Source: Chthonomonadales bacterium
GTDB lineage: Bacteria; Armatimonadota; Chthonomonadetes; Chthonomonadales; Chthonomonadaceae
Direction: 5' to 3'
DNA: 34,251 nt
NCBI GenBank assembly: GCA_038217285.1
Contig: JBBQPO010000023.1
Location: 1-34,251 of the forward strand
Shown: piece by piece, positions 1 through 20,738 of the stretch
Numbering within the stretch: position 1 is the first letter of the stretch
Layout: every line of letters begins with the position of its first letter
Notes under the pieces: generated by a model
Seen by the model: the letters and a program-made list of their open reading frames with translations, nothing else
What the model was told of the DNA's origin: nothing
The model's database searches: none
Made by a program: the position numbers and the translations under genes

Positions 1-366
1 ACACACGCCGTCTTTTTGCCGCGCCACGTCCAACTCAGTTCGCGCTTGCCAATGTTACGCTTCTCTCGGTCCGGCAAGCAGATTATGTGGGTAATCGCGC
101 AGGTTCAGCCGGACCCTCTTGGAGATCTCTTACACCGTTTCCTGCCGGCCCACACGCCCCATCGCGAACTCCGTGAGGGAGTGTGGGTGGGCCGCAGCGA
201 TGGAACGCATGTGCGTGCGCTCGGTTCGGTGCGGATGCATATCGCGCAGTCCGGCATCGAGGAGAGAGAGGCACCGACCTACGAAATCGGCGATGCCGAC
301 TGGATGACGGATGAAAGACGAGTATGGTTCTGCTATGCAGATTTCCGCACCGTGCCCGTCGAATAG
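1..366 (+). CDS. 3' part of a hypothetical protein (runs off the window start), possibly TolB/beta-propeller-like C-terminus
   Basis: Frame 1 is open from base 1 to TAG at 364-366; ends VWVGRSDG...DWMTDERRVWFCY, resembling propeller blade ends. Confidence 0.5.
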   Translation, partial: THAVFLPRHVQLSSRLPMLRFSRSGKQIMWVIAQVQPDPLGDLLHRFLPAHTPHRELREGVWVGRSDGTHVRALGSVRMHIAQSGIEEREAPTYEIGDADWMTDERRVWFCYADFRTVPVE

Positions 367-535
367 TGGTAGATCCTTTGGTGTCTGAACCGGGCTCTGT
401 ACGTTAAATCAACGGACGGTTGGCTGCTGGGTATGGGAGATAGGTGAGAAGGGGCATGTGGGACGGGCGCGTGGGAAAGGAGTCGATTGACGCAAATGAG
501 AGCAATCTATATTCGACAAAGCGGCACAAATTGCT

Positions 536-714
536 GTATGGTTGTTCCCTTCCCCAAATCGTTGGCCCCTGCGAGGAGACCAGGAGTTTGGCACTGCATC
601 GGGCTTGGAATGGGTTGTGCCCTGGTTCTCGCGTGTCTGGTGCGACGGCGACGGGCGCGCAAGTAGGTTTCGAACCCTGGCTACGGAGTTACCGGCGACG
701 GAGGGGCAACATAC
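536..714 (+). ncRNA. candidate structured non-coding RNA (family unknown)
   Basis: Ends pair (GTATG 536-540/CATAC 710-714; TCGTTGG 559-565/CCGGCGA 692-698); internal stems 576-584/621-630 and 591-594/617-620; G.U pairs favour the + strand; no convincing ORF; terminator downstream. Confidence 0.3.
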
Positions 715-778
715 TCTCAGACCACCTGGTTTGCTTCTATTGCATGGTGTGAATCGTCGATTCCAGATCGCAATCAAA

Positions 779-820
779 AGTCCGCCGTCGGAGAACTGCT
801 CTCCGGCGGCGGACTATTTT
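779..820 (+). terminator. intrinsic terminator-like hairpin
   Basis: AGTCCGCCGTCGGAGA-actgc-TCTCCGGCGGCGGACT, 16-bp stem with one G.U pair, followed by ATTTT. Confidence 0.6.
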
Positions 821-945
821 ATTGGCAGTGAGGGGCGGCGGAATGTTTCCGATCAAACCGCAAACCCCGTGCGTTGCTCCGCGGCCTCGGCGCGGGAAGC
901 TCTTTCTGCGAGATTACCCGGTGGGGCAGGGCTCGAGGACGTGCC

Positions 946-1110
946 TCACTTTCGCAAGAGCCGGAGTCCCCCCAGTGTCAGGACAATGGCGGTGACATTC
1001 ATTACGATAAAACCCGCCAGATTGAATGGGTGGACCACAGCGGCGACCATCACGTTCAGAATCAGCAAGGGTAGGATGAGAACGGCGTGGTTCAGGGTTT
1101 TGCTCTGCAT
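946..1110 (-). CDS. small membrane protein with two TM helices
   Basis: MQSKTLNHAVLILPLLILNVMVAAVVHPFNLAGFIVMNVTAIVLTLGGLRLLRK: two hydrophobic stretches and a basic C-terminus. Confidence 0.45.
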   Translation of the reverse strand: MQSKTLNHAVLILPLLILNVMVAAVVHPFNLAGFIVMNVTAIVLTLGGLRLLRK

Positions 1111-1201
1111 AGGAGACTCGCTTTTCCGGGCCAAATGACTGGTTTACAGTCCGTTACGGTTGTAGAAGGACGCAAATTCGCGTCCGGCTCTTTTTGGTGG
1201 C

Positions 1202-1489
1202 TTATCCGCTGGACGAACGAAATAAGCTCGGGGTTTCACTGCATGACGTGCCGGTCAATCCCTCGCGCACCGTGTGGACTGCGTTCATCAAAACATCGAG
1301 GCCGGATTCCTTCGCCACAAAGGCATTCGCTCCCAGCCGCATGGCGGCCTCGACATAGTACGGCTCAGAGTGAGAGGCCAGTGATGACATCGGTGGTGAG
1401 GCCCGTAGTGGGATCGACATCGACAGGACGGTCAGGAGTCGCGGATACAGCCTGCGATGCAGGTAGCTAATCTCAATTTGCATAACCAA
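1202..1489 (-). pseudogene. fragment of a NarL/LuxR-type response-regulator receiver domain
   Basis: YPRLLTVLSM...HSEPYYVEAAMRLGANAFVAKESGLDVLMNAVHTV matches the C-terminal half of REC; the phosphoacceptor half and HTH are missing; ~15-aa insert after LSM. Confidence 0.5.
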
Positions 1490-1512
1490 GACGGCGGACG
1501 AGAAATTGTTGA

Positions 1513-1577
1513 GGCTGTTGTTGTAGTAATCTTGATATTGCAGTTATCATTATGATACAATGGATATGGATCGGACG
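1513..1577 (+). promoter_or_regulatory. sigma70-type promoter element, copy A (shared with 24074-24138)
   Basis: TTGATA (1532-1537)-18 nt-TACAAT (1556-1561); 51/65 identical to 24074-24138 without gaps. Confidence 0.7.
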
Positions 1578-1998: not shown

Positions 1999-2161
1999 CC
2001 ATTTCCGGTAACGATCCCTGGTTATGTTTGTCTGGCGTGGTCGCGTCCGCTCCACCGAACGTCGATTTGGGCGTTCTGTGGGGTGGACGCGGCCCGCCTC
2101 CTCTTCTCTTCGACCCGGTCTGTGGCCGCTTGGTCGTGATGACGAAAGGCGCTTCTCTCTC

Positions 2162-3100
2162 ATGGGATTTCTCGACTATCTTTCGCCGATCGTGGGCGGC
2201 GTCTCTTCGGTGGTGGGGCTAATTCAGGACAGTCAGGCCCGGCAGCGCGCCCAACAGCAACAGCAGCAGGCTCTGCAGGCGTACGGGCAGGCTGCGGATC
2301 AGCAGTATCAGAATATACTGGGCAATAACAGCCGAACGCTCTATGGGCTGGCGGGGCAGGGCGCGACGGCGATTTCGAACTTGGGGGCGAATCTGGGCAG
2401 CGCGCTGGCGGGAGCGGGGGTGTATAACTCGTCGGCGACGGCGGGGGCGCTGGACCAGGCACAGCGGGACGAGGGCACGAACATCGCGAATCTGGCCGCG
2501 CAGAACTCCTATAACGCGAACTCTTTTTATCATCAGGCGCAGCAGAACCTGGCGCAGATGCGACTGGGGCAGGCGAACACGAATTATGCCAACGCGAATG
2601 GGGATCTGCAGGGCAGTCGGCAGGGTCTGGGCAGTTTCCTGGGGGCGCTGACGACGAGTGATCTATTGGGGCACGGAGCCGCCTCCGAGGCTCCTGCTCC
2701 GAATCCAGACTACAATCAACTGCTGAAGCAGGGCGATATTACGGAGGCGGATCTGACGGGTGGGGGCTCTGGTGTGGGTGTACCGATGGGCGTGAACCCG
2801 ATGCAGGGTTATGACCCGAACACGCCGCTGGGGTTCGGGACTCGGCAGGCCGCGATGCCGGGCAGTCCGGCGGCGCTAGGTGCGACGACGCAGGCGAATC
2901 TGGCGAGCAGCGGGGCGAACGCCTACCGCACGGCGCTGCCGCAGATTCCGGGAACGCTGGCCCAGGGAGCGAACCTGGCGGGCAACGCGGGCGGGATCGG
3001 GAATAGCGGGGGCTCCTTTTATGGGCATCCTTATTCGGGCTGGAACGGGCTGCTGGATAGGTATACAACGGGGCTTTCTGGGGCGCTGCCAGGTCGGTAG
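2162..3100 (+). CDS. putative virion DNA-ejection/pilot protein
   Basis: ATG 2162; N-terminal Gly-rich hydrophobic segment (LSPIVGGVSSVVGLI) then Q/A/N/G-rich helical region, the composition typical of podovirus ejection proteins (P22 gp7-like); lies downstream of promoter A. Confidence 0.55.
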   Translation: MGFLDYLSPIVGGVSSVVGLIQDSQARQRAQQQQQQALQAYGQAADQQYQNILGNNSRTLYGLAGQGATAISNLGANLGSALAGAGVYNSSATAGALDQAQRDEGTNIANLAAQNSYNANSFYHQAQQNLAQMRLGQANTNYANANGDLQGSRQGLGSFLGALTTSDLLGHGAASEAPAPNPDYNQLLKQGDITEADLTGGGSGVGVPMGVNPMQGYDPNTPLGFGTRQAAMPGSPAALGATTQANLASSGANAYRTALPQIPGTLAQGANLAGNAGGIGNSGGSFYGHPYSGWNGLLDRYTTGLSGALPGR

Positions 3101-3141
3101 AGCGTCTTCACAACCCTTCTTTGGCGAGGTAAATTTTTCTT

Positions 3142-4506
3142 ATGTCCGATTTTCCTTCCGATAGTTTGACGCCGTTTCAGAGGCTGATTTTGAGCCGATT
3201 TCCAGGTCAGACGCCGCCAGCGGACGCTTTCGCGGGCTGGTCACGGCAGGCTGATCCGTCGGTGTTCAACCCGTTTCAGCCGGGGGTGGCGCTGCGTCCG
3301 CTGGGCGAGGGCACACCTCCCGCCTCGTTCGGACTGCCGCCGACTCTGCTGCGGGGTTCTGGCGTGGTTTCGGCGCAGCGGGGGTTGGCGTCACCGATAT
3401 CGGGTCTGCAGGATCCGGGGAATGTGGGTCTGGTGCCGATTCCGCCTGCACCGGACTTTACGCAGGATCTGGCGCGGTATGGTCAGGTTCTGCACGATCA
3501 GGCGGTCAACCGGGTGACACAGCAGGACGTGAGCGGGGCAGAGGCGCTGGGACGAGCGGGCGGGTTTCAGGCGGGTCTGAAGGCGCTGCCGAGTTTCGAC
3601 GCGGCGGACCCGGCGTATCACTGGAACGCGGTCGCACCAGAGAGTCTGGGCGCGCCGCGTCTGGTTCCGCTGCCGACGCGGCCTGCGGCGGGCCATAGTG
3701 CGCTGGCGCAGGGGCTCGCGGCGCTGGCCGGTCTGGTGGATCCGCGCGCGGCGGGCGGCTACAATGCCGCGCCGTTGCAGGCGGGTATCGAGGCGGCGAA
3801 CACGCAGTACAACGACCGTCTGCGGCAGTTTGGGCAGGCGCAGGAACAGTCGAACGCTCAGTATGCGGCCGAGCGGACGAACGCGGAGCAGGCGAACCGA
3901 TTTGCGCTGGTGAACGCGGAGGAGAGCGAGGCGGCGGCGCTTCGGGCGCGGCAGGCGCAGGATACGGCGGCGCTGCGGCGCGCACCCTACGAATCGGGGG
4001 CGGCGGAGGTGGGCGCGCTGGCGACGAGTCTGCCGGCGCTGGGGGATCGGGAGCGGCTCTCACTGGGCGGCGGGGCGGACGCGGCGGCGATCCTGGAGAA
4101 GATGAATCTGGTGGACAAGCAGTATACGCAGGCGCTGGAGGCGGCGCGCTATACGAACAACCCGCTGGCGCGCATCCAGGTGGAGACATTGCGGCAGCAG
4201 GGGTTCTACTATAGGGCACTGCTGCGGAAACTGGAGGCGAGCCCGGGAGGAGACGGCGGCGCGAGCGGATTGGGAGTGGGGGCGACGAGCGCCCCCAGGC
4301 AAGCGGTGAGTGCGCCCCCCGTGCTGACGCCGGGAAGCCCTGCCGCGACCCGCAGACCGGCTCCTTCGGCAACGCCACCCGGCAAGCCTCCGAACGCGGC
4401 CTTCAGTCCAACTCCGTCGGCAACGCCTCCGGGGAAGCCGACCTCCGTGCCGACGAGTCGGTTCGCGCCAGCCAATCCGAATGCGCCGAATACCACAATT
4501 CGTTAA
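3142..4506 (+). CDS. putative second ejection/internal virion protein
   Basis: 454 aa, Pro-rich termini, central hydrophobic LAQGLAALAGLV then A/Q/E coiled-coil; co-oriented with the previous gene; PSATPPGKP occurs twice (4363-4389, 4414-4440). Confidence 0.45.
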   Translation: MSDFPSDSLTPFQRLILSRFPGQTPPADAFAGWSRQADPSVFNPFQPGVALRPLGEGTPPASFGLPPTLLRGSGVVSAQRGLASPISGLQDPGNVGLVPIPPAPDFTQDLARYGQVLHDQAVNRVTQQDVSGAEALGRAGGFQAGLKALPSFDAADPAYHWNAVAPESLGAPRLVPLPTRPAAGHSALAQGLAALAGLVDPRAAGGYNAAPLQAGIEAANTQYNDRLRQFGQAQEQSNAQYAAERTNAEQANRFALVNAEESEAAALRARQAQDTAALRRAPYESGAAEVGALATSLPALGDRERLSLGGGADAAAILEKMNLVDKQYTQALEAARYTNNPLARIQVETLRQQGFYYRALLRKLEASPGGDGGASGLGVGATSAPRQAVSAPPVLTPGSPAATRRPAPSATPPGKPPNAAFSPTPSATPPGKPTSVPTSRFAPANPNAPNTTIR

Positions 4507-4581
4507 TGTTCAATTTTCGATTTGCAAGGAATGGGCCGAGAGAAACGAAATCTCCCGGCCACAAGAGGGTGCGCGAAGGGG

Positions 4582-5508
4582 CTATGTTGGCGGTGCGGGG
4601 GGATCGTCAGAGGCGTAGCAGGCGACGTTGATGAGCTCGTGGGAGAAGGGCGGCGGAAACTCGGTGAGGCTGCCGTCGCTATGCTGGACCTGATAGGTGT
4701 AGTGCGCAAGGGGGCGCAGCAGTTCGGTCATATCGGTCATCGACCATCCGATGCCGTTGGCGACGGTGTAGTGATATTCGTAGGTTAGACTGGGATGGTC
4801 TTTGGTGATCACCTCGGTCGCGCCGCGAATGACGTTGGGCTCGTGTCCTTCGACATCGATCTTGATCAGGCCGACTTTCGGGATGGTTCCGTCTTGGCGG
4901 AGACTGTCGAGGGAGCGGCAAGTGACCGGTGTCTCCTGGAACTGGATCTCGACATGGGTCTGGTGAAAGGATCCCCATTCGGAGTTGCCGGGGGACGAGT
5001 AGAAGGTGAGCGTCTCGTCTTTTTCGCCGACGGCGCACTGGAACAGTCGGACATTGGTGAGGCGATTGAGCGCGAAGGTGGCGGCGGCGAGTTTGGCGGT
5101 GGATTCCGAGGGTTCGAAGGCGAAGACCGGCACCCGATCGCCCAGACTTTTGGCCATGGTGGCAGCCAGCAGGCCCATATTGGCCCCGACGTCCAGATAG
5201 GCACCGCTATTTGGACGATACATTTTGAGCAGGTTCCGAATGTTGGGGCCGTCCCAGTCCGGGTGGACGGCACAGACGACGGAGTAGATTTCGCGACTGT
5301 CGCCGACAAAGGCGACGCCCTCTTTGGTATGGGCGATGAAATACGGCTTTTTCTGCGTGATTCGGCGGATGATGGCATGGATACGATGGGGAAAGCCTTC
5401 TTTGAAGCGGCTTCGGAACGCGAGGAGCGACCAGATCCATGTATAATTGCCGACCTGGGGCAGGAAGGTATCCAGGCACTGCTGGAACTGCTGGGGAGGG
5501 ATTTCCAT
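4582..5508 (-). CDS. FkbM family SAM-dependent methyltransferase
   Basis: Motifs YLDVGANMG, VFAFEP, AVGE, LDSL, IKIDVEGHE...GA. Confidence 0.92.
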   Translation of the reverse strand: MEIPPQQFQQCLDTFLPQVGNYTWIWSLLAFRSRFKEGFPHRIHAIIRRITQKKPYFIAHTKEGVAFVGDSREIYSVVCAVHPDWDGPNIRNLLKMYRPNSGAYLDVGANMGLLAATMAKSLGDRVPVFAFEPSESTAKLAAATFALNRLTNVRLFQCAVGEKDETLTFYSSPGNSEWGSFHQTHVEIQFQETPVTCRSLDSLRQDGTIPKVGLIKIDVEGHEPNVIRGATEVITKDHPSLTYEYHYTVANGIGWSMTDMTELLRPLAHYTYQVQHSDGSLTEFPPPFSHELINVACYASDDPPAPPT

Positions 5509-5783
5509 CGAGACTCCATTCTACAAGCGAAAAATTAGCTGCGGCATCGACCGCGCGATTTTACATTTGAACAAGCCGAACAAGCACTCTAACAGTATAT
5601 ATTTCTCTGTTATGTGGGGAGATTCCTGCGCTTTGGGCCAGAGCGCAGTTCTGGCTTGGGCAGTAGGGTGGGTCACTTCTCTATATTTCTCAATGGGGAA
5701 TACAGAGAACTGAGGAGGCTGACATGTTTTCTACGGTGAATACAACGCCCCTCTGCTTATGAATTGCCGGTGCCTGGCAGCAT

Positions 5784-5810
5784 GAAAGCCAGCGTGAGGC
5801 GCTGGCTTTC
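5784..5810 (-). terminator. hairpin, likely terminator of the two small minus-strand genes
   Basis: Perfect 11-bp stem GAAAGCCAGCG-tgagg-CGCTGGCTTTC. Confidence 0.5.
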
Positions 5811-5839
5811 GTCATTACTGGTGGGCGTGGGTGGACTCT

Positions 5840-6069
5840 CTATTTGTGATGTCGGTAGTGATTCCCGGTTCGGGCGTTGCGATAGTGTCCGCCTCCGTGC
5901 GAGGAGCCATGACCGCCGACATAGTGTCCGCCACGACTGGTATGGTGTACAGTGTGATGGGAGTGATTAAGATGTGGCGCACGTAGTGGTGTTGCGCCGA
6001 CGCGTTCGGAAGGGTGGCCACGAGAGCGAGAAACGCTGCCGCACAGGTTAAATATCTGATTGTTATCAC
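5840..6069 (-). pseudogene. small secreted His/Gly-rich protein with a frameshift near 5970-5985
   Basis: GTG 6069 overlaps the upstream stop (GTGA); signal peptide ...LPNASA-QHHYVRH; a shifted frame then reads NHSHHTVHHTSRGGHYVGGHGSSHGGGHYRNARTGNHYRHHK* (stop 5840-5842). Confidence 0.6.
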
Positions 6070-6248
6070 TTTCTGTCTCCCTTATCGCCCTGGCCCTCGG
6101 CGACCTTCGTTTTGGCGGCTTGTTTCACGTCTTGACTCAAAGATTTTCCGACGTCCGTCTGGTCTTTGGTAAACTTGCCGTTCTCATCGCGGCGCACGAA
6201 GCGTTTATCGCCTTTGTGCGGTTCCAGCAGTTCTCGTTTCTGTGCCAT
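6066..6248 (-). CDS. small conserved hypothetical protein
   Basis: KRELLEPHKGDKRFVRRDENGKF...DVGKSLSQD...GQGDKGD, a recognisable small hydrophilic family; GA-rich RBS upstream. Confidence 0.75.
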   Translation of the reverse strand: MAQKRELLEPHKGDKRFVRRDENGKFTKDQTDVGKSLSQDVKQAAKTKVAEGQGDKGDRK

Positions 6249-6441
6249 CTCGCTCGCGTCTCCTCTCTCATTTTGTATGGTTGTGCGTCACCCGTTACTG
6301 TGGGTAGTGTTGCGGTGTCAGCGGGAAGACGGTGAGGAGAAGCGGTGAGTTCCGTGGAAACGAGGGAGCCGGACTTGCGAGAAGTTTTCCGATGTGAGCG
6401 GCGTTGCGAACATCTGGGCAAGTTGTGTACCCTACATAGAG

Positions 6442-6447
6442 TATAAT
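6442..6447 (+). promoter_or_regulatory. -10 element, probable leaderless promoter of the HEAT gene
   Basis: Perfect TATAAT 7 nt before ATG 6455, with no Shine-Dalgarno between them. Confidence 0.45.
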
Positions 6448-6454
6448 CGTAGCT

Positions 6455-7678
6455 ATGCTACCTACCGACTCTCATTTCAATCCGCCCCCCGGCGTTTCGC
6501 TCCCTTCTGAGGAGGTGCTGCACCATATCAACGGTCTGAAGGCGGAAAATCGCTATACGCGTTCTTCTGCGGTGAAGGCGCTGCGGCAGATAGGGGATCG
6601 ATGGGTGGTCGAGCCCTTATGCGCGGCGCTCCAGGATGAGGACCAGGCGGTTCGCACCTCTGCGGCGAAGGCGCTGGGGGAGATCGGGGATGCGCGGGCG
6701 GTCGTATCCCTCTGCAGGGCGTTTGCGGAGGATGACCCGTCTGTTCGTAATATCGCGGCCTGGTCGTTGGGTCAGATCGGGGATGCGCGGGCCGTCGTGC
6801 CCCTGTGCGAGGCGCTCAAACTCGAGATCAGTTATATCCGTCTTTCTGCTGCTGAGGCGCTGGGTCAGATCGGGGACGCGCGGGCTGTTGAGCCTCTCTG
6901 CGCGGTATTCAAGCATGCGGATCCGTCTGTTCGCTCTGCGGCCGCGAAGGCACTGGGTCGTATAGGGGATGCGCGGGCGGTTGCGCCGCTCTGCGCGGCG
7001 CTCAAAGTTGAAGACCCGCCTGTTCGCTCTGCGGCGGCGAAGGCACTGGGTCAGATAAGAGATGTGCGGGCGGTCGAGCCGTTGTGCGCGGCGCTTGAGT
7101 CGGGAATCCCTTATATTCGGATCTCTGCCGCCGAGGCTCTGGGCCGGATCGGAGATGTGCGGGCGGTCGCCCCTTTGTGCGCCGTGCTCAAGGTTGAAAA
7201 CGAGGAGGTTCGCACTACGGCGACCTGGGCGCTGGGGCAGATGGGAGATGCGGTCGGACTGCCCTTGCGGATACTTTCGGCGCCGACTCTCACTCCCGCA
7301 GAGCGATTGACGGCCCTGCAGTCCTTGACGGGCGCTTTGCCCAGAACTGCGGGGAAGGCGGTGCGTTATGTGGTTGGGGATGTGCAGACATTCTGCGAGA
7401 ACTTATGCGGAACGGTTCGTAGTGGAGAGAGTGCCAGAGAGAGTGTTCGACGCGGTGCGGAAGCAGTGCTGGCGGAACTGCAGAACAGAGCGAACGCGAA
7501 GGTGCTCCTGCGTGCGAGTGTAAGCGATGATGCCAGGGAGAAGGACGAACTGCTGCGGGGTGTCTCCGACCGATCCAACACGACCGCCTCCGGCGAACTG
7601 CTGCGTCCTTCGGAAAACTCGGGTGAAGCGAACAGCCCGAAGAAACCGGGGATACTGTCTCGGATTTTTGGGATTTAG
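6455..7678 (+). CDS. HEAT repeat (PBS lyase HEAT-like) protein
   Basis: About eight 31-aa repeats VRxxAAxALGxIGDxRAVxPLCxAL (~93-bp DNA repeats); C-terminal LLRAS...ELLR repeats. Confidence 0.92.
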   Translation: MLPTDSHFNPPPGVSLPSEEVLHHINGLKAENRYTRSSAVKALRQIGDRWVVEPLCAALQDEDQAVRTSAAKALGEIGDARAVVSLCRAFAEDDPSVRNIAAWSLGQIGDARAVVPLCEALKLEISYIRLSAAEALGQIGDARAVEPLCAVFKHADPSVRSAAAKALGRIGDARAVAPLCAALKVEDPPVRSAAAKALGQIRDVRAVEPLCAALESGIPYIRISAAEALGRIGDVRAVAPLCAVLKVENEEVRTTATWALGQMGDAVGLPLRILSAPTLTPAERLTALQSLTGALPRTAGKAVRYVVGDVQTFCENLCGTVRSGESARESVRRGAEAVLAELQNRANAKVLLRASVSDDAREKDELLRGVSDRSNTTASGELLRPSENSGEANSPKKPGILSRIFGI

Positions 7679-7723
7679 GGATGGACTATGATCTCTGGTC
7701 CAACGGTCACAGAGATGGAAGGA

Positions 7724-7756
7724 CAAGCCCCCGACGTTTACGTGGGGGTATCTGAC
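7724..7756 (-). mobile_element. remnant IS200/IS605-family end hairpin (resembles the 5' end of IscB-element/HEARO RNA loci)
   Basis: Minus strand reads GTCAGATACCCCCACGTAAACGTCGGGGGCTTG...GACCAG; no tnpA, tnpB or iscB ORF adjacent. Confidence 0.4.
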
Positions 7757-7914
7757 TCTAGGGGCCCAACGTCATCGGGACAAATGTTGTGTTAGGGACG
7801 GTTGTTCGGAGGCGGGCCTGACGCGCGAGGGCCTCCTTAGTGTAGACCCGACCGGGTATCGCAGAGGTGGGCCGGATGGAAGCAGTAGTAAGGGACCAGG
7901 AGCGGAGGAATGGG

Positions 7915-8340
7915 ATGGCATCTGCAGAGTCGGACGAGGAAGAGGTTGTGGGGCTTCCGCGGGGACATCTGGCACGTTTCACGGCGAGCCTGACGTTGGA
8001 ACAGAAGAAGCTGTGGACGCCGATTCGTCGGGTGTGGAAGGCGGATGCGCGGCGTGCGGTGGCCCGACCGGCTAGTTCGAACCGGGATCTGCTGTACGAC
8101 TCGATGAATCAGGCGCAGGGCAGGATCACGGCGGAGAAGATCGAGCAGTTGATCGACAATGCGGTGGCAAAAGGGGATGTGCAGGCGCTGCGGGTGATGG
8201 CGCAGATGGCCGGAATGGATCTGACGGACCGCCCGAAGCAGATCGTGGGCGAGGGTGCGAAAGTGATCATCATTCGCCCCCACCCGATGCTGCTGACCCC
8301 GGTGGAAGAGTCAAGCGTACAAAAACAGAGCGATGGTTGA
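7915..8340 (+). CDS. candidate terminase small subunit
   Basis: 141 aa from ATG 7915 with GGAGG RBS; helical AVAKGDVQALRVMAQMAGMD and C-terminal beta strand KVIIIRP, as in TerS oligomerisation regions; nearest co-oriented gene upstream of TerL. Confidence 0.45.
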   Translation: MASAESDEEEVVGLPRGHLARFTASLTLEQKKLWTPIRRVWKADARRAVARPASSNRDLLYDSMNQAQGRITAEKIEQLIDNAVAKGDVQALRVMAQMAGMDLTDRPKQIVGEGAKVIIIRPHPMLLTPVEESSVQKQSDG

Positions 8341-8388
8341 TTTTCGATTGATTCTGATGACCAATCGAAAATCAACCATCTTCTTTTC
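8332..8388. terminator. long hairpin between convergent genes (likely bidirectional terminator)
   Basis: Perfect 19-bp stem GATGGTTGATTTTCGATTG (8332-8350)/CAATCGAAAATCAACCATC (8362-8380), then TTCTTTTC. Confidence 0.7.
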
Positions 8389-9337
8389 AGGCTTTTTTGC
8401 GGCGGCGCAGCAGGATGGCTGCGCTGGTCAGGCCCGCGATCACCAGTCCAACGACGCCGGGTTCTGGGGTTGTGACGCTGGCGGAGAGCAGTGTGCCGTC
8501 GAACTGCTTACCGAAGCCGAAATGGAGTTCGTTGCCGCCGGAATCGGTCAGAGAGGCGGCGATCAGGTTGCCTTCGATGACATTCCTCTGCGTGACCGCC
8601 GCAAGGGGAGCGAGCAGAGAGCCTTCGAAAAGGCGATTGTCGATCATGAAGCTATTAGCAGTATTGTCGTTCCAGAGGATGCGATCAAAGTTGCCGCCCT
8701 GAACCTGGAGACCAAAGCCACCGACGTTTCCGCCGGTGATGTTGAGCAGAAGGGTGTCTTGCGCTCCGAAGTTGGCGATGCCGAGGGTGCGGTTGGCGCT
8801 CAGTTGCGATGCCGGGATGGAGAAGACCTTGAAGTGGCCATACTTCGTCGCACTGCTCAGGTCGATGTTCAGGTTGTTTTGGTCACTTGTATTGATCGTT
8901 TGATCGATGAGACCCGCGAGGTAGTTGGACTGATTGACGAAGGCCGTCGGGCTGAAGATGTTCGTCACGGGGCTCTTCTGGCTGCCGCCTCCCTGGAAAA
9001 TAAGCGGGTTGCCGCTTGTGGAGCCGACATAGGCGTCGTCGGTGATCTGGGTACTGCCGACCGATCTAATATTGCCACGGACATAGGCACCGATGTTGCT
9101 GGTGTTGCCGACGGTCGCCGCCGAATAGCCTGTCTGACCGGCTTTGAAGTTGACGTTGAACGAGCCGACGGTGTAGTTGCCGCCGACCGCGATGGGGCCC
9201 TCGATTTCGCCGCCGCTCGTGGTGTTGGCATCACCGAAGATGAAGGCGTTGAAGCTTTGTGCGACGCCCAGACCGGATTGAGCGGAGGCATGGGAGGGGA
9301 TGAGTGCAAGCGCGAGCACGGTGAGTAACTTCCGCAT
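8387..9337 (-). CDS. choice-of-anchor A family protein with PEP-CTERM sorting signal
   Basis: Signal peptide; FNAFIFGD...EGPIAVGGN, ILWN, GSLLAP, EGNLIA, ELH motifs; C-terminal TPEPG-TM-RRRKKA. Confidence 0.88.
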   Translation of the reverse strand: MRKLLTVLALALIPSHASAQSGLGVAQSFNAFIFGDANTTSGGEIEGPIAVGGNYTVGSFNVNFKAGQTGYSAATVGNTSNIGAYVRGNIRSVGSTQITDDAYVGSTSGNPLIFQGGGSQKSPVTNIFSPTAFVNQSNYLAGLIDQTINTSDQNNLNIDLSSATKYGHFKVFSIPASQLSANRTLGIANFGAQDTLLLNITGGNVGGFGLQVQGGNFDRILWNDNTANSFMIDNRLFEGSLLAPLAAVTQRNVIEGNLIAASLTDSGGNELHFGFGKQFDGTLLSASVTTPEPGVVGLVIAGLTSAAILLRRRKKA

Positions 9338-9714: not shown

Positions 9715-11079
9715 ATGGCGGCGGTGCTTGCGTGTTATGCGTGGCAGCAGCAGGTTTTCGAGGCGTGCGAAGATCCAGATATCGAGCAGATCGCGGTGGT
9801 CGGGAGCCGTGGGCCGGGCAAGTCCTGGACGGCGCGGCATGTGAATGTGGTGCGGGCGCTGCAGCGCCCGGGCACGAACCATATTCTCTTTCGGCGCACG
9901 TCGGACGACATTGTGAAGCAGTATGCGCCTGAGCTGAAGGCGCTGCTGAACGATTTTGGCGGTGTGGGACGCATTCCGCACGTCTACAACCAGACGTACA
10001 AGACGTTTACGATCATGTGCCCGAACGGAGGCGAGAGCCGGATCTTTCTGGCCTTCGCGGAGTATGCAAAGCATGCGGAGAAGCATATGTCGATGGAGTA
10101 CGCGACGGCGACTTTCGACGAGGTGACGCATTTCGAGGAGATCATTCCGCAGTTGATCGGGGGGTCGGTGCGGGGCGGGAGCAATCTGAAGAAGCTCTAT
10201 TTCGGTAATCCGGGCGGGATTGGTCATGGCTGGTGTAAGAATCGGTTTATTCGGCAGGAGACGCGGGACCCGAAGACCCTGGTGTTGCAGCCGGCGCTTA
10301 AAGATAATCTGGAGTTGGCGCGCACCGATCCTGGCTACGCGGCGCGGCTGACGGCTGGGCTTCCGGAGTGGAAGCGACGGCAGTGGCTGGCAGGCGATTG
10401 GGAGGCGAGCGAGGGGCAGTATTTCTCGGTGCCGGATGGGGCGATCCGCGAGGTGAATCCGCCGGTCTGGGCGCAGTGGTATGCGGGCGTGGACTGGGGT
10501 TTCTCGCCTTCAGCGTTCGCAGTGGTCTGGATCGCGGTGTGGCGGGAACTGCATACGGGGCGGCACCGCTGCCATATTTTCGCGGACCTGAAGCTGCATA
10601 AGCGGCTGGACGCGGAGCAGGCGCGGGAGGCGTTGGGAGTGGAAGCGTTGCTGCCCGCGCCAGTGAAGGCGCGGTTCGCGGACCCTTCGACGGGCAAGGA
10701 GACGGAGAGCGACGGGGACGAGCAGACGCGCACGACGGCCCGCACCTGGGCGCGGAACGGGTTTGTGACGCTGCCAGCGAAGCGCAGGGGGCGGGTGCCG
10801 GGGTGGATGCTACTGCGGCAGTTTCTGACGCCGATACCGGGCTACTCGCCGGACCCCGACCGCCCGCACGGGGTGCTGACGATCTCGCCGGAGTGCGGCG
10901 CGACGCTGGCGGAGCTCCAGGACGCTACCTTCGAGACGCGCGGCGGCATGATCGTCAGCGATGACCTTGGTGGGGAGGACCACTGCTGTGACTCGATTCG
11001 GTACTGCATTGGAATGGTCTATAACATGAATTTCCCTGAGTCACGGCTGTTGCCTTACGCACGGCGGACCGATGGTTAG
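9715..11079 (+). CDS. terL: phage terminase large subunit
   Basis: Adenine-binding YAWQ, Walker A GSRGPGKS, Walker B ATFDE, coupling motif FGNPGG, RNase H-like nuclease AGVDWGF...ADPS...DHCCDSIRY. Confidence 0.92.
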   Translation: MAAVLACYAWQQQVFEACEDPDIEQIAVVGSRGPGKSWTARHVNVVRALQRPGTNHILFRRTSDDIVKQYAPELKALLNDFGGVGRIPHVYNQTYKTFTIMCPNGGESRIFLAFAEYAKHAEKHMSMEYATATFDEVTHFEEIIPQLIGGSVRGGSNLKKLYFGNPGGIGHGWCKNRFIRQETRDPKTLVLQPALKDNLELARTDPGYAARLTAGLPEWKRRQWLAGDWEASEGQYFSVPDGAIREVNPPVWAQWYAGVDWGFSPSAFAVVWIAVWRELHTGRHRCHIFADLKLHKRLDAEQAREALGVEALLPAPVKARFADPSTGKETESDGDEQTRTTARTWARNGFVTLPAKRRGRVPGWMLLRQFLTPIPGYSPDPDRPHGVLTISPECGATLAELQDATFETRGGMIVSDDLGGEDHCCDSIRYCIGMVYNMNFPESRLLPYARRTDG

Positions 11080-11305
11080 GGGATTCGGCACACAGGGACC
11101 GAAGTAAAGTGCGCGGGACTCTAGCATTTCTTTCGCCGACAGAAGTCTCGGAGGTTTGCCCTGGATCCTTCAAAATGTGCCGGAGGAACCGCCCTCCGCA
11201 GGGATCCTGTCTTCGTTTACCGGGTATACAGAGCCGTTGCCCATAGCGCGCAGCGGCCAATGATCAGGTTCGTGTGACGCAAACGTGTCACACAGGAGGC
11301 GCCAT

Positions 11306-11899
11306 ATGAAAGCTGGAAAGCTAGTTTGCTCGCTCCCATCGCGTTGCTCTGTTTTGTGCCAGGGACACTTGCGCGTACTATGCCCAAAGCGCCAGTAGTT
11401 GCCTTCCGGCAACAGCCACTGACCTCGACCGAATTTACTATCACCATCCAGGGCAAAAAGCAGGGCATGTTCAAAGGGGATGGACACGCCAATCAGATCC
11501 GTGGCCTGAGCTATGACCTTCAGATTATGTCGCCGCGTGACCCCCAATCGGGGCTGCCTTCGGGGAAAGTTCGGTTCAACCCGCTCGTCGTTACCAAAGA
11601 GTGGGGAGAGGCGTCTCCACAGATCCTCATCGCCCTGGCGACCAATGAGTTGTTGCCAGCCGTTCAACTCACCTTCTATAGTGTGAATGGTCCGGGCGAA
11701 CACCATGTGGATCATGTCATCACGTTAATGGACGCGTCTGTCTCGGAAGTCCATCACCGTCCAGGAGCAGGGTCTGAAGGACAGCTCGACCGACAAGTTC
11801 CAGTTGGAGGATATCTCCTTCTCCTTCCGCAAGATCCAGGTAGAAGACAAAGTCGGTAAAACCGTCTTTATAGCAGATGGATCGGTGAGCCAACAGTAG
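11306..11899 (+). pseudogene. hcp: Hcp1-family (T6SS tube-like) protein with N-terminal signal peptide; two compensating frameshifts
   Basis: AGGAGG RBS + ATG 11306; middle frame (11326-~11750) has ITIQGKKQG, SPRDPQSGLPSGKVRFNPLVVTKEWGEASPQI, ATNELL, ITLMDASVS; C-terminal LEDISFSFRKIQV lies in the ATG frame and ends at TAG 11897-11899. Confidence 0.8.
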
Positions 11900-12030
11900 A
11901 TCGGATCGCGCCATCGCCCGTGAGGTGTCGATAGCGAGAGAGCCTCTAAAGCACGAGCGCAACTCTGAAAAGGGTTGCGCTCGACCCGTTTCAGCGTTGG
12001 CAGGACAGCATTTCTCATACGCTGGTCCAT

Positions 12031-13560
12031 TCAGCGATTGCGTTTGCGGTAGAGGCCGAAGGCGGCCATGCCTACGCCCAGGAAGCCTGCTCCGAGCAGG
12101 CCCATGGCAAGGGCGCCCTGGTGGGGGCGGATGGTGTCGGCATAGGTTTCGAGGGCTTTGTCGACGAGGGGCTCCCTGGCTTTGCGCTCGTACCAGCGCT
12201 GGGCGGCGTGCTGGTTGGCCATGGAGAGCGTCGGGTAGACGTGAATGAGGTCGGCGACGTCGCGGATGGTGTGGTTGTGCTGCATGGCGAAGACCCACTC
12301 CTGGATCAGTTCTCCGGCGCGTGGGCCGAGGATGTGCGCTCCCAGGATTTTGCCGCTCATGCCCTGTGTCAGAACTTTGACGAAGCCCCGGCTATCGTTG
12401 TCGGTGAGGGCGCGGTCATCCTGTGCGAAGGGCTGGCGAACGACCTCGTAGATCAAGCCGCGATCTGTAGCCTCCTCTTCGGTGAGGCCGACGTGCGCGA
12501 CTTCGGGATCGGTAAAGGTGGTCCAGGGCGCAACGCGAAACGAGGCTTTGGCGCTGCCGGGAAAGACGATGTTGCGCACGACCGTTTTGGCCTCGAACTC
12601 GGCCATGTGCGAGAACTGGTATTCGCCCAGCAGATCGCCGCAGGCATAGATATGTGGCGCAGAGGTGCGCAGAGCGTCGTCGGTGGGAATGCGATCTTTC
12701 TCGACGCGCACACCGGCAACTTCCAGGTTCAGCCCATCGATATTCGGGGCGCGCCCGACACCGATCAGGATCTCCGCGCAACGGATCTCGCTTGTCTCTT
12801 CACCCTCTCGCAGCGTGACGACGCGCTCCTCACCCTCTTTCCGCACCGCGATCAGCTCTGTGTTCAGGCGGAGGTCGATACCGTCCTGGCGCAGATATTT
12901 CTCCAACTCGAAGGCAAGCTCGGCGTCGTCACGGGGCAGCAGGCGCGCGCCTTTTTGCACCAGCGTGACCTGACTGCCCAGGAGTTGGAACGCCTGGGCC
13001 ATCTCGACGCCGATGGGACCGCCGCCCACCACCAGCAGACTGGCGGGAATGGCGTTTAGATCGAAGATCGTCTGATTGGTGTGGGCGCCTGCCTCGGGCA
13101 GACCGGAAACGTCGGGAAGAACGGGGTGGGAGCCGGTGGCCAGTATGAAGTTGGCCGCCGTCAGACGCTCACCGTCCAGGAGCAGGGTATGGGGGTCTGC
13201 GAAGTGCGCGTCGCCATGTCGGATCTCGGCGCCGTTCTCGCGCATCAGGTCTTCGGTTGCGTCCGCAATCCGCACACGGTCGATCGTGCCCCGCACCCAC
13301 GGCAGCACTCCTGCGGCTTCTTCGCGTCCAATCGCGCTATCTTGAAGACCTATCTGGCTGGCAGTACGTAAGATTCGCGCGGTTTTGGCGGCATGGAGCA
13401 GGGCTTTGCTGGGGACGCAGCCGGTGTTCAGGCATTCGCCGCCCAATTTCCCCTTCTCGATCACCAGGACGCGCATCTTAAGCGCCCCTGCCATGACGCT
13501 CGCGACCATGCCTGCAGAGCCGCCGCCCAAGATGATGATGTCGTAGTCGTAATGGCTCAT
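12031..13560 (-). CDS. pyridine nucleotide-disulfide oxidoreductase (dihydrolipoamide dehydrogenase/MerA-like family) with C-terminal TM helix
   Basis: GGGSAG, GGECLNTGCVPSK, GGGPIGVE, IYACGD, HVYPT; start overlaps the arsS stop (ATGA). Confidence 0.9.
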   Translation of the reverse strand: MSHYDYDIIILGGGSAGMVASVMAGALKMRVLVIEKGKLGGECLNTGCVPSKALLHAAKTARILRTASQIGLQDSAIGREEAAGVLPWVRGTIDRVRIADATEDLMRENGAEIRHGDAHFADPHTLLLDGERLTAANFILATGSHPVLPDVSGLPEAGAHTNQTIFDLNAIPASLLVVGGGPIGVEMAQAFQLLGSQVTLVQKGARLLPRDDAELAFELEKYLRQDGIDLRLNTELIAVRKEGEERVVTLREGEETSEIRCAEILIGVGRAPNIDGLNLEVAGVRVEKDRIPTDDALRTSAPHIYACGDLLGEYQFSHMAEFEAKTVVRNIVFPGSAKASFRVAPWTTFTDPEVAHVGLTEEEATDRGLIYEVVRQPFAQDDRALTDNDSRGFVKVLTQGMSGKILGAHILGPRAGELIQEWVFAMQHNHTIRDVADLIHVYPTLSMANQHAAQRWYERKAREPLVDKALETYADTIRPHQGALAMGLLGAGFLGVGMAAFGLYRKRNR

Positions 13561-14531
13561 GTCGTCACCGCCCCGCCGCAGGAAGAGCCGCTGCCGGCCG
13601 TACAGCCGAAGCAGTGCGGGCCGGTGATGATGCGCCGCCGGGCGAATGGGAGCAGGTCGAGATCTTCAATCGTCTGCGGCAGGCCGTCGGAAACAGGCAG
13701 TTCGAGCATCTGGTTGAAATCGCAGTCGTAGAGGCGGCCGTCCCACCCGACGCTGAGCAACGTGCGGCACATCAGGCTCGGCACCGTACCAGGATTGAAA
13801 CTATTGACCAGCTTTTCCATATAGCGCTCCTCGTTTCCCGACCGGCGCAGGTAGTCCAGAAAGCGACGTATCGGCATATTGGTGATGGTGTAGAGATGGT
13901 TGAACTCCAGATCGTAGCGCGTTTTGAGTTCACGTTTGAAATCGCGCTCGGTGCTCGCCTGATCCGGTGGCAAAAATGCGCCGACGGGATTGTAGACCAG
14001 GTTGAGGTTCAGGCCGGTCCCTTCCTGCCCGTAGCCAACGTCATTCAAGCGCCGCATGGCATCGAGGCTTTGGGCGAAAACGCCTTTGCCGCGTTGGGCG
14101 TCGGTCTGCTGAGCCAGGAAATAGGGCAGGGAGGCGATCACCTCTGCCTGGTTCTCCCGAAAGAACTCGGGCAGACAGGCGTTGCCGGGTGTGAACTGGA
14201 CCGTGAAGTTGTGCCGCACCATCACATGCGCGCCCGCCTGTCGAGCCTCGGTCACAAGATAGGCAAAATGAGGGTTGAGTTCCGGCGCGCCGCCTGTGAT
14301 GTCGAGGATAGGGATGCGGAAGCGCCGGAGTGTTTGCAAGACCTGATCGACCGTTGTACGGCTCATGATCTCGGTGCGCTGCGGGCCTGCTTCGACGTGG
14401 CAGTGCTTACAGGCCTGGTTGCAGAGCTTGCCTACGTTGACCTGGAGGGTTGTGATGGCGTCTTCCGCGCGCAGTTCACCCAGATTGTGATCCAGGAGAA
14501 CGGTATCGAAAGCGGTGATGGTGAGAGGCAT
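13557..14531 (-). CDS. arsS: arsenosugar biosynthesis radical SAM protein (TIGR04167/DUF3641 type)
   Basis: LQVNVGKLCNQACKHCHV, DITGGAPE, LVYNP-GAFLPP, MCR-LLSVGWDG-LYDCDFNQML, HCFGCTAGSGSSCGGA. Confidence 0.92.
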   Translation of the reverse strand: MPLTITAFDTVLLDHNLGELRAEDAITTLQVNVGKLCNQACKHCHVEAGPQRTEIMSRTTVDQVLQTLRRFRIPILDITGGAPELNPHFAYLVTEARQAGAHVMVRHNFTVQFTPGNACLPEFFRENQAEVIASLPYFLAQQTDAQRGKGVFAQSLDAMRRLNDVGYGQEGTGLNLNLVYNPVGAFLPPDQASTERDFKRELKTRYDLEFNHLYTITNMPIRRFLDYLRRSGNEERYMEKLVNSFNPGTVPSLMCRTLLSVGWDGRLYDCDFNQMLELPVSDGLPQTIEDLDLLPFARRRIITGPHCFGCTAGSGSSCGGAVTT

Positions 14532-14564
14532 AAGGTATTCCTGAGAGTGGTGAGAGTCGGGCGC

Positions 14565-14894
14565 TCACATTGAGATTTTGTCAACTGTGTTGTGGGCCTG
14601 GAGGCCATGGATCAGCGTTGCGCCTCCACGCACTGCGGACGCCATGTGAATAGCTTCCGTCATCTGCTCGGTGTTGGAGCCTGCTTCGAGGCAGGACTGC
14701 GCGTAAGAGTCGATGCAGTATGGACACTGGAGGGCATGGGCGACCGCAAGGCCGATCAGCGATTTTTCCCTCCGGGAGAGGGCGCCCTCTTCGAGGCAGG
14801 CGTTGTACCAGTCCATGAATTTGGCGAACAGGTCGGGCCGCTCTTTCGCCATCTCACCGAAACGATCTAAATCTTTCTCTTCGTAGTAGGACAT
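14565..14894 (-). CDS. arsenosugar biosynthesis-associated peroxidase-like protein (CMD/AhpD family)
   Basis: YY..DL..FG; GALSRREKSLIGLAVAHALQCPYCIDSY; GGATLIHG; GGAGG RBS before ATG 14894. Confidence 0.9.
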   Translation of the reverse strand: MSYYEEKDLDRFGEMAKERPDLFAKFMDWYNACLEEGALSRREKSLIGLAVAHALQCPYCIDSYAQSCLEAGSNTEQMTEAIHMASAVRGGATLIHGLQAHNTVDKISM

Positions 14895-14906
14895 AAGGCC
14901 TCCATC

Positions 14907-15617
14907 ATGCATTTTAATCCGAACGTGCCCAAACCGGAACCCCTGTTCCTCATCATGGCAAAAGCGCCGCGAGCCGGGGCTGTCAAAACTCGCCTGTGTC
15001 CTCCGCTGTCAGAAGACCATGCTGCCTTGCTCGCCGCCTGTTTCGCGCAGGATGTGGTTGCCGCCGTCCGGGCGGTCTGTCCGCGTGTGCTTCTCGCCTA
15101 CGCGCCTCTTGAGGGCCGTAGCCTTTTGGAGCCACTGTTGCCGCCGGGTCTGCTCTGGACTCCGCAGCGGGGCGAAACCCTCGGAGAGCGGATGCAGGGC
15201 GCGTTCGAGGCAGCCGACACGAGCGGGTTCTCTCCGCTGGTTATGCTCGGAACCGACAGCCCGACGCTGCCGCCCACTTTTCTTGACGATGCGCTGCAAC
15301 TTCTGACGACGGATCGGGCCGATGTCGTGCTGGGGCCGACAGAGGACGGCGGATTTTATCTCGTCGGGGTGCGCCATCCCTTTGCCGGCCTCTTCGCGAA
15401 TGTGGCATGGAGCACGGCGCAGACGCTGGCGAATACCCTGCGGAATGCCGTTGCCATGAACCTCCGCGTAACGCTCCTACCTACCTGGTACGACGTAGAC
15501 GTGCCTGAAGACTTAGAACATCTTTGCGCGGAGTTTGGTTCCGAACCTACCGCGCGAGACCGTGCTCCGCAGACCTATCACTGGCTGCGCGCCCATTCGC
15601 TGGTCCTACCTCGATGA
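14907..15617 (+). CDS. TIGR04282/DUF2064 family glycosyltransferase-like protein
   Basis: MAKAP..G.VKTRL, Q.G..LGERM, GTDSP, VVLGP..DGGFYL, WST, WYDVD..EDL; start could also be GTG 14925. Confidence 0.9.
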   Translation: MHFNPNVPKPEPLFLIMAKAPRAGAVKTRLCPPLSEDHAALLAACFAQDVVAAVRAVCPRVLLAYAPLEGRSLLEPLLPPGLLWTPQRGETLGERMQGAFEAADTSGFSPLVMLGTDSPTLPPTFLDDALQLLTTDRADVVLGPTEDGGFYLVGVRHPFAGLFANVAWSTAQTLANTLRNAVAMNLRVTLLPTWYDVDVPEDLEHLCAEFGSEPTARDRAPQTYHWLRAHSLVLPR

Positions 15618-16306
15618 ACATCACTGTAATCGTGCCTACGCTAAATGAGGAAAAAACGTTGCCTGGGACGCTGCACAATATCGCGATGTGTGCGCCGGGG
15701 TGCGAAGTGATCATCGTGGACGGCGGCAGTTCGGATAGCACCCGGGCGGTTGCACAGGCGTTTACGAGGTTTCCGATTGTGTGGCTGGAGTCTCCGAAAG
15801 GCCGGGGCACACAGATGAACGCAGGCGCGGTGCGAGCGACGGGGGATGTGCTGCTGTTCCTGCACGCGGACACGCATCTGCCACCGGAGACGCCTGCCCT
15901 GGTAGAGCGTGCCCTTCAGGATCCGGCGATCCTCGGCGGATTCTTTCGGATCGCCTTCGTCCCGCATGCCCCACTCGGCGACTTCTATGCCTGGTGTTAC
16001 AACCTGCGCAGCCACTTCCGTGTCTTTTATGGGGATGCGTGTCTGTTCGTGCGCCGTCCGGTGTTCGCGCAGATGGAGGGCTATCGGGCTGCGCTGCTGA
16101 TGGAGGATATCGAGCTGATCCTGCGTCTGCGCCGCGCGGGCAGACTGGCCTATATTCGGCCGGCAACGGTCGAGTCTTCCTCACGTCGCTTCGCGACCAC
16201 CGGTGTCGGGATCAAGATGCTGTTCGTCTGGTTCTGGCTGCATATCCTGATGGCCTGCGGCGTTTCTCAGGAGAGGCTGGCGCGATTCTATCCGGACAAA
16301 CGCTAG
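15614..16306 (+). CDS. TIGR04283 family GT2 glycosyltransferase
   Basis: VIVPTLNEE, VDGGSSD, GRGTQMNAGA, LLFLHADT, YGD, LMED, SSRR; ATGA overlap with the previous gene. Confidence 0.9.
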   Translation: MNITVIVPTLNEEKTLPGTLHNIAMCAPGCEVIIVDGGSSDSTRAVAQAFTRFPIVWLESPKGRGTQMNAGAVRATGDVLLFLHADTHLPPETPALVERALQDPAILGGFFRIAFVPHAPLGDFYAWCYNLRSHFRVFYGDACLFVRRPVFAQMEGYRAALLMEDIELILRLRRAGRLAYIRPATVESSSRRFATTGVGIKMLFVWFWLHILMACGVSQERLARFYPDKR

Positions 16307-16365
16307 CCCTCACCTATGCGGAAGCTGCGGCCCGCCATAAATTTCTTATTGAGGAGACATTCGTT

Positions 16366-17187: not shown

Positions 17188-17235
17188 GAGGGGAGGAGAT
17201 CGGCGCGGAGAGCGATAAATGGCGGAGGTCAGAGA

Positions 17236-17457: not shown

Positions 17458-17505
17458 CCGGGGACCTCGGTGTCCGGCAACATCTTCGTACGCTTTCTGT
17501 CGGGA

Positions 17506-18834: not shown

Positions 18835-18976
18835 AGGTGTCCCCCCTCCTCGATAAGTTCACGGCTCAGCGTGTGCAAGAGGCAGACGCGCCTCGTCTTC
18901 CGAATGCGGGCGTCGGAGGCTGTGCGGACGTTCGCGCGTTGCGTCTGCGGATCGTCGTCAGAGTCGATAGCCCTTC

Positions 18977-20683: not shown

Positions 20684-20738
20684 TTCTGCCTCACGCGATT
20701 GGATCGGTGCGCTCCGGTCCGGAAGGAGTTCCTGTGCA

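Follow-up and report, generated by a model that had tools for sequence, protein, structure and literature searches.

Repeated promoters placed before blocks of genes are a familiar phage strategy. The phiEco32-like phages are described as all encoding a sigma factor and as carrying six to eight conserved promoters per genome, six in phiEco32 and eight in phage 7-11, which are read by the phage sigma (PMC8948821). The element described here resembles these promoters, as that account presents them, in that several copies of one promoter-like sequence occur, each before a gene cluster and at like positions in relatives. It differs in that the phiEco32 and 7-11 promoters are reported there to consist of one 9-nt element or of a bipartite motif and to be unlike host promoters (PMC8948821), whereas the present element has a host-consensus core within 65–80 conserved nucleotides, was found without a sigma gene, and is known from sequence alone. 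A second comparison is with the SAS of Cluster K mycobacteriophages, a 13-bp sequence located by start codons in 11–19 copies, for which a translational role has been proposed (PMC3203893). As the published account describes the SAS/ESAS repeats and the stoperators of Cluster A, they are, like the present element, oriented phage-specific repeats that precede a subset of genes and are absent or nearly absent from the host, and the role of SAS/ESAS was, as here, deduced from position (PMC3203893). Unlike SAS, the present element is 65 nt long, is built around -35 and -10 hexamers, and is found in 2–4 copies per assembly.

The gene transfer agent RcGTA offers a third comparison. The regulator GafA is reported to bind the promoter of the RcGTA cluster, its own promoter, and the lysis promoter, and the structural, head-spike, tail-fibre, and lysis genes, which are not all in one cluster, are reported to rise together (PMC6363796). 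The likeness to that account is that phage-derived genes lie in separate places with possible common control (PMC6363796). Unlike RcGTA, the present set is known from its genes alone, and its relatives also look like ordinary viral contigs.

Morons are promoter-gene-terminator units inserted between phage genes, each with its own unrelated promoter. One unit examined here, a promoter-like element with one small gene that is found at different places across genomes, is similar to a moron; unlike in morons, the same promoter sequence also heads the portal/capsid and ejection-like blocks. Scattering of genes has been described for Chthonomonas calidirosea, in which operon genes are dispersed and sigma factors were proposed as a regulatory remedy (PMC4959169). 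The present element departs from these systems in having a host-type core set within conserved flanks of 65–80 nt, a 5' edge that is sharp and falls at rearrangement breakpoints, and gene blocks divided by host DNA. To our knowledge, the Armatimonadota have few cultured members and no phage whose regulation has been studied. If the copies share control, they would provide a sequence handle for every transcription unit of a largely family-less phage-derived system, and a clear case of co-regulation by repeated promoters after dispersal of a gene cluster.

Two copies of a 65-nt element in the window

We analyzed a window of 34,251 nt, which is the entire contig C23 of a Chthonomonadaceae assembly (G000; 459 contigs, 6,210,036 bases). 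Positions 1513–1577 (copy 1) and 24074–24138 (copy 2), both on the forward strand like all features below unless stated otherwise, align without gaps at 51 of 65 positions (78%), confirming the match that a preliminary description of this DNA had reported. Given the base composition of the window, a match of at least 51/65 is expected by chance at 2.8e-18 per position pair and at about 3e-9 across all pairs in the window. That description had also allowed for a motif repeated throughout the genome. When both strands of the 459 contigs were scanned for the 51 shared positions, a score of 51/51 was obtained at two places, with the runner-up at 29/51 (four places), and sub-motifs of 17–32 nt from the spacer, the -10, and the start region likewise occurred in the assembly at these two places only. 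These scans indicate a real element rather than a common repeat.

A profile made from the sequences of six copies of the element, and from nothing else, matched copy 1 at 1507–1601 (76.5 bits, E 2.7e-23) and copy 2 at 24065–24166 (83.9 bits, E 1.3e-25). A search of the window with the full model for further or partial copies gave the two copies and an inverted hairpin arm, and no further copies were found in the G000 genome, where there was one weak profile match (C212, E 0.22).

Each copy contains a promoter-like core. In copy 1 (1532–1561), a -35 of TTGATA at 1532–1537 is followed by an 18-nt spacer and a -10 of TACAAT at 1556–1561 (10/12 to consensus), with TG preceding the -10; in copy 2 (24093–24122), the same -35 at 24093–24098 is followed at the same spacing by TATAAT at 24117–24122 (11/12). 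Both sites had been proposed earlier, and both were recovered by a promoter scan, in which the two cores rank top in their halves of the window. Two other sites, 11653–11682 and 20277–20305, also score 10/12, and promoter-like sites in the window as a whole are not above the level of shuffled sequence (5 observed against 4.3 and 4.4 expected), which counts against the promoter reading. The first bases of the spacer differ between the copies, being TTGCAGTT in copy 1 and ACACACCG in copy 2, again as described before. Downstream of the core both copies contain ATGGAT, at 1566–1571 and 24127–24132, which by its distance to the -10 is the predicted start region and which also supplies the first codons of an M-D-R-T-L reading.

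A perfect 23-bp hairpin lies at 24035–24087 (arms 24035–24057 and 24065–24087; -31.7 kcal/mol, z -6.0) and overlaps the stop of the gene 22505–24037. The 3' arm consists of the first 14 bases of copy 2 and the 9 bases before them, and the left arm is an exact inverted copy of these same bases, so that the hairpin is built partly from the element. An intrinsic terminator was considered for the 5' part of the element (GG..TTGTTGT) and rejected, as a clear hairpin is present in 2 of the 12 copies described below, copy 2 and the copy G033:C74 (z -1.7). Because a single copy besides copy 2 has such a hairpin, the 5' block is not a general terminator tail. A structured leader RNA was also rejected, the leaders folding with z of -2.0 to +1.6 and 1 of 12 falling below -1; Rfam gave no matches in the window.

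Occurrence of the element in relatives

When run over 42 genomes of the family, the profile gave nine matches at E 4e-20 or better, distributed over three genomes (two copies in G000, three in G032, and four in G033), all of the window's genus; the other 24 matches listed had E of 0.005 or worse. Three of the five genomes of the genus thus carry the element. By rpoB, G032 and G033 are the closest kin of the window's genome (91–92% identity), and two genomes of the genus that are free of the element stand at 85–87%. We also used a strict pattern, consisting of the invariant bases at fixed spacing. This pattern matched seven stretches among 185,579 species genomes, all within the two MAGs G032 and G033, and in addition three metagenome contigs and one IMG/VR contig (a UViG), the element of which is identical to the G032:C461 copy. 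The total is 12 distinct copies. An earlier, tighter pattern had matched one relative and no viral contigs. The scan of relatives that the preliminary description had suggested therefore yields copies that are confined to carriers of the same phage-like genes. The capsid protein of the window (27107–28174) has matches in Chthonomonadaceae MAG contigs at 95% and 82% identity. In the more distant relative (capsid 82%) the element was not found, and a TTGACA-N18-TACATT site precedes its Zn-ribbon gene instead.

Anatomy and conservation of the element

The 12 copies were aligned, and it should be kept in mind that the copies are few and related, so that counts of conservation are not independent. 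The first 65 bases align without a single indel, and pairwise likeness ranges from 62 to 88%, apart from one near-duplicate pair of metagenome copies at 97%. The 30 bases upstream of the element hold almost no information, and conservation starts abruptly at base 1. The conserved blocks are GG, TTGTTGTAAnAAC (6–18), T.GATA (20–25), a GTTATC-like block (31–36), GATATAMTG (42–50), and TATGGATAG (53–61), and the variable spacer positions are 26–30 and 37–41. Conservation upstream of the -35 and across the start region, originally noticed in the two window copies, thus holds in the larger alignment.

The spacing between -35 and -10 is 18 nt in all 12 copies. The -35 is TTGATA, which agrees with the consensus at 5/6, in nine copies, TAGATA in two, and GTGATA in one. 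The GATA is invariant, with GACA found in 0 of 12, and the TTG, which is normally the best-kept part of a -35, is altered in 3 of 12; this counts against the promoter reading. The -10 is TACAAT, TATAAT, TATACT, or CATACT, with A2 and T6 present in 12 of 12. The consensus elements given in the text of the phiEco32-like phage account do not fit the alignment at the spacing stated there (PMC8948821).

When the window's genome was compared by blastn with the IMG/VR relative, the genes aligned at 72–87% and the intergenic spacers did not align. Neutral DNA has therefore diverged beyond recognition while the blocks of the element were kept. Two bases of the element, A52 and C60, are shared by the G000 copies and absent from the other 10, and both G000 copies begin with GGCTG. 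As sequence patterns, these shared bases hint at a concerted change within the genome or at co-evolution with a factor.

Fit to host promoters

Upstream regions of host tRNA genes served for comparison. Of these, 27 of 50 score at least 10/12 to TTGACA-N16-19-TATAAT, against 1 of 250 shuffled sequences, indicating that the host uses the common bacterial consensus. The hexamers of the element agree with this host tRNA promoter consensus, at 10–11/12 for the G000 copies. Because the host consensus is the common bacterial one, the cassette should be testable in ordinary laboratory hosts. The 26 host tRNA promoters listed have GC-rich spacers, mostly of 17 nt (20 of 26), and on inspection none of these 26 contains the TTGTTGTAAnAAC, GTTATC, or TATGGATAG blocks. 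As a separate observation, the host tRNA promoters are of the textbook form TTGACA-N17-TATAAT, which is useful for promoter annotation in the phylum.

Genes behind and beside the copies

All 12 copies point into the same phage-derived gene set, in which the element is followed by an HNH-like gene, by a block that begins with a gene for a protein starting MGFLD, or by a Zn-ribbon/portal block. The HNH-like gene lies directly behind four copies (copy 1 of G000, G033:C74, G032:C684, and G033:C8), and the MGFLD gene behind another four (G032:C277 and the three metagenome contigs). In the window, no separate element copy precedes the MGFLD gene, which comes after the HNH-like gene. The Zn-ribbon gene lies behind copy 2 of G000, G032:C461, and G033:C56, the first two of which continue into the portal-capsid block. 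The remaining copy, G033:C514, has portal and capsid genes behind it and lacks a Zn ribbon. There, a PEP-CTERM gene on the minus strand stands between the element and the portal, which counts against the promoter reading. This antisense gene (L001, 356–1123) encodes a PEP-CTERM-type secreted protein, and G033:C56 has a copy of it, at 73% identity, behind its Zn ribbon; the G033 assembly therefore holds two diverged versions of the portal region.

The gene behind copy 1 (1605–1998) is HNH/endonuclease-VII-like and carries a Zn finger (PHROG, E 6.6e-8). The Zn-finger part alone matched the PHROG, Pfam gave nothing, and an endonuclease catalytic motif was not found in the gene. In all three genomes the gene occupies two frames, frame A at 1605–1832 with a conserved stop and frame B at 1675–1998. 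Variable sites fall at the third positions of frame A to about 1815 and at the third positions of frame B from about 1845, consistent with either an overlap of two genes or a +1 shift that is conserved close to the stop of frame A.

Behind the HNH-like gene is block 1 (2162–9328), made up of genes without a known family, whose proteins gave no matches to Pfam or PHROGs. It includes the MGFLD gene from 2162, a start deduced from the metagenome copies, a 454-aa gene (3142–4506), a HEAT-repeat gene (6455–7678), and a 157-aa ORF (7867–8340). The ORF containing the MGFLD gene extends over 2024–3100, and translation probably begins at the Met at 2162 (MGFLD...), as it does in relatives. Weak Atlas leads connect the MGFLD protein and the protein encoded after it with phage ejection proteins of the P22 gp7 type. 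The HEAT-repeat gene consists of six 93-nt repeats, and in an independent run one contig passes straight from 6444 to 7840, which means that some relatives lack the gene. A 331-aa ORF lies in the region 8332–9328, with a perfect 19-bp hairpin at its start (8332–8380); the ORF is absent from G033:C56, where the homologue of the 157-aa ORF stands directly before the terminase. In the window the large terminase gene (9715–11079; phrog_2, E 5.6e-34) lies 8 kb downstream of copy 1.

Copy 2 is followed by a gene for an 84-aa Zn-ribbon protein beginning MPRYDYMC (24241–24495), preceded by AGGAG and matching Zn_ribbon_8 at E 1.7e-5, below the Pfam cut-off. Its start at 24241 is in frame with the M-D-R-T-L reading of copy 2. 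Block 2 (24603–34251) then contains the portal gene (24603–26255), a 269-aa ORF, the major capsid gene (27107–28174), and genes for two SU10-adaptor-like proteins, a tail-fibre-like protein, and a lectin-like protein, and goes on in contig C416. The claim that each copy precedes a small Zn-finger or Zn-ribbon gene and then virion genes holds for copy 2, with its Zn ribbon, portal, and capsid. For copy 1 the Zn-finger gene stands, and the weak Atlas leads suggest that virion genes may follow directly behind it.

Among approximately 50 ORFs of the window, searches of Pfam and PHROGs found nothing regulatory, which argues against a reading as promoter and operator. The HNH-like Zn-finger protein and the Zn-ribbon protein are candidates for a cognate DNA-binding factor; a PDB sequence search with the two proteins gave nothing useful.

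The separated blocks and the host-like insert

The two blocks are separated in the window, as first described, with approximately 13 kb of host-like genes (11170–24037, not assigned to a strand) between the terminase and copy 2. The core of this insert (about 12278–17159) has a counterpart, at 73–76% identity, in a host locus of G031, a member of the genus without the element. The genes of the insert encode a disulphide oxidoreductase, radical SAM/DUF3641, CMD, and DUF2064 proteins, a phosphorylase, a beta-lactamase family protein, a Zn-ADH, and two large unknown proteins. In G033:C56 the element and the Zn ribbon come immediately after the terminase (0 kb insert); in the IMG/VR contig about 3 kb, with the ADH homologue among them, separate the terminase from the element. 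The region 11170–24037 is therefore a variable cargo region, with 0 or about 3 kb at the same place in relatives.

A potential concern is whether the arrangement of the blocks results from misassembly. Contigs from the probable source run span both junctions without differences, at 9901–11423 and 22486–25112. In an independent run (X2), one contig, judged by its depth, covers 10220–11770, and another contig shows a joint from 20047 to 24386 like that of the IMG/VR contig. Since contigs of the source run and of X2 cross the junctions, the arrangement is not an assembly artefact; the 20047-to-24386 joint further indicates that the sequence immediately 5' of the portal-block copy varies.

The gene set is present in the three genomes that are closest by rpoB identity among the five of the genus, with capsids 95% and portals 92–95% identical, on contigs that are short. 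The same structural block is also found on the IMG/VR record, the contig of which is collinear with the window over 24230–34104 and then with contig C416, and relatives of the gene set also have the appearance of ordinary viral contigs.

A probable promoter-operator cassette and its rivals

We favor, as the probable explanation, that the element is a host primary-sigma promoter cassette with element-specific regulatory sites, which heads each unit and places the units under common control. The core, in which a -35 resembling TTGATA and a -10 of TAYAMT are held 18 nt apart in every copy, would be read by RNA polymerase containing the host primary sigma, and the conserved ATGGAT would hold the transcription start, predicted at 5–7 nt downstream of the -10. 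Of the three additional blocks, TTGTTGTAAnAAC would occupy about -50 to -38, GTTATC would fall between the hexamers, and TATGGATAG would span the start; they are most likely bound by a regulator that belongs specifically to the phage-derived element. The simplest model would be a repressor through which all units are silenced together, and since the core already approaches consensus, this is the more likely kind of regulator; an activator, or a factor that binds RNA polymerase, is possible as well. One copy would head each rightward unit of the podovirus-like gene set, so that blocks split by 13 kb of host-like genes could keep common control. The repeat itself, its specificity, its pattern of conservation, its agreement with the host consensus, and the placement and direction of its copies are observed, and from there the transcription start, the binding of a regulator, and co-regulation are inferred. 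The dispersed blocks may be one maintained system. The preliminary description had proposed a dedicated regulon element, and of this proposal the specificity, the conservation, the host-consensus core, and the position at phage-derived blocks stand, with the reservation that some of the repetition may reflect spread of a cassette.

Such spread, in the manner of a moron or a homing element, is an unlikely but serious rival. The copies would owe their likeness to descent from a mobile promoter-gene cassette inserted at junctions, which sometimes lost its gene and whose ancestral unit consisted of the element, a short leader, the HNH-like gene, and possibly a terminator. The four copies with the HNH-like gene directly behind them fit this proposal. 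In G033:C74 and G032:C684, homology to the window runs from 1512/1513 to 1965/1966, which covers the element and the HNH-like gene, and the unit adjoins host genes, an aldo/keto reductase and MIOX in one case and a histidine kinase in the other. A hairpin and T-run follow the gene in G033:C74, where homology ends at the stop of the gene and the flanks are host DNA. This unit has the look of a promoter, gene, and terminator; the window has a terminator-like site at 2080–2100. Traces of the gene also remain at portal-type copies, where the portal-block copy of G032:C461 and the UViG retains the first codons of the HNH-like gene before the Zn ribbon and G033:C56 keeps its GGAGG. These four promoter units and the remnant at the portal copy suggest that part of the repetition may be due to cassette spread. 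However, the four MGFLD-type copies have another leader and no remnant of the HNH-like gene, that gene itself matched by its Zn-finger part alone, without an endonuclease catalytic motif, and discrete blocks of the element are kept where blastn fails on spacers, which points to selection beyond descent. Note that an origin by cassette spread and present shared control are compatible, and it is as an account of the origin that we regard spread as the most serious, though still unlikely, rival.

That the podovirus-like genes for head, packaging, and ejection form a GTA-like or long-domesticated set, kept vertically in one Chthonomonadaceae subclade, is a more doubtful proposal. Its blocks would have drifted apart among host genes, like the operons of the phylum's 'disorganized' genomes, and a dedicated promoter-operator cassette of 65–80 nt would unite them in function, its copies changing in concert within each genome through co-evolution with one regulator.

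Conservation downstream of the -10 might alternatively be explained by a leaderless mini-ORF or leader peptide (M-D-R-T-L-L-R-S-L...), the translation of which would control the gene behind it; we consider this improbable. The ATGGAT is invariant in 12 of 12 copies and lies 4 nt after the -10, the Arg codon occurs as CGG, CGA, AGG, and AGA, and the first Leu codon as TTG, CTT, and CTG. Among the eight HNH- and portal-type copies, this frame has 53 synonymous and 82 non-synonymous pairs among codons that differ, compared with 45/108 and 17/141 in the other frames, and it has the fewest second-position changes (44), but these pair counts are not independent. The reading ATG GAT CGR ACG plus a Leu codon is present in both window copies, as had been noted. 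The peptide is kept in the eight HNH- and portal-type copies and not in the four MGFLD-type copies: it ends after 4–5 codons in two of the four (MDRM* and MDKRF*) and differs after M-D-R in a third. The lengths of the reading range from four codons to open read-through, and transcription from the canonical position, 7 nt downstream of the -10, would begin at the G of the ATG, so that the codon would be lost. A related candidate, in which M-D-R-T-L is an N-terminal extension of the main proteins, was rejected, as 4 of 12 copies are without a stop and the reading is in frame with the main gene in the three that were checked, about the rate that chance gives for frame; the same counts weigh against the mini-ORF.

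Less probable again is that the element is a recombination or boundary sequence, a module junction or attachment-type repeat with no promoter. Homology between genomes does begin within 1 nt of base 1 of the element, the sequences on the 5' side of all 12 copies are unrelated, the content between the terminase and the portal copy varies from none to the 3 kb and 13 kb described above, and the X2 contig has the UViG-like joint. Against this reading, copies of 62–88% likeness with exact runs of about 12 nt are a poor substrate for homologous exchange, an integrase or recombinase was not found in the window, and near-consensus hexamers at a fixed spacing are left unexplained. Repeats of the attL/attR type in particular were rejected, in view of the 78% identity of the window copies, the location of copy 2 inside the gene set, and the 2–4 copies per assembly that lie away from the two ends of the phage-derived element.

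Finally, it is scarcely credible that the repeat is a promoter serving a sigma factor or an RNA polymerase of the phage-derived set itself, with incidentally host-like hexamers, for although Pfam matches of the SU10 type were obtained with the portal and adaptor proteins, SU10 being one of the phiEco32-like phages, and the conserved blocks extend past a normal host promoter, the hexamers match the host consensus at 10–11/12, a sigma-like or polymerase gene was not found in the window, and the published phiEco32-like consensus elements misfit the alignment as described above.

Left flank of copy 1

The left flank of the window (1–1512) is not common to the relatives. An ORF on the reverse strand (1202–1489) looks like a degenerate response-regulator fragment, with no match in Pfam. 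Bases 1–78 correspond to the end of contig C273 at 97%, and bases 1260–1373 resemble at least three other G000 contigs at approximately 81–82%.
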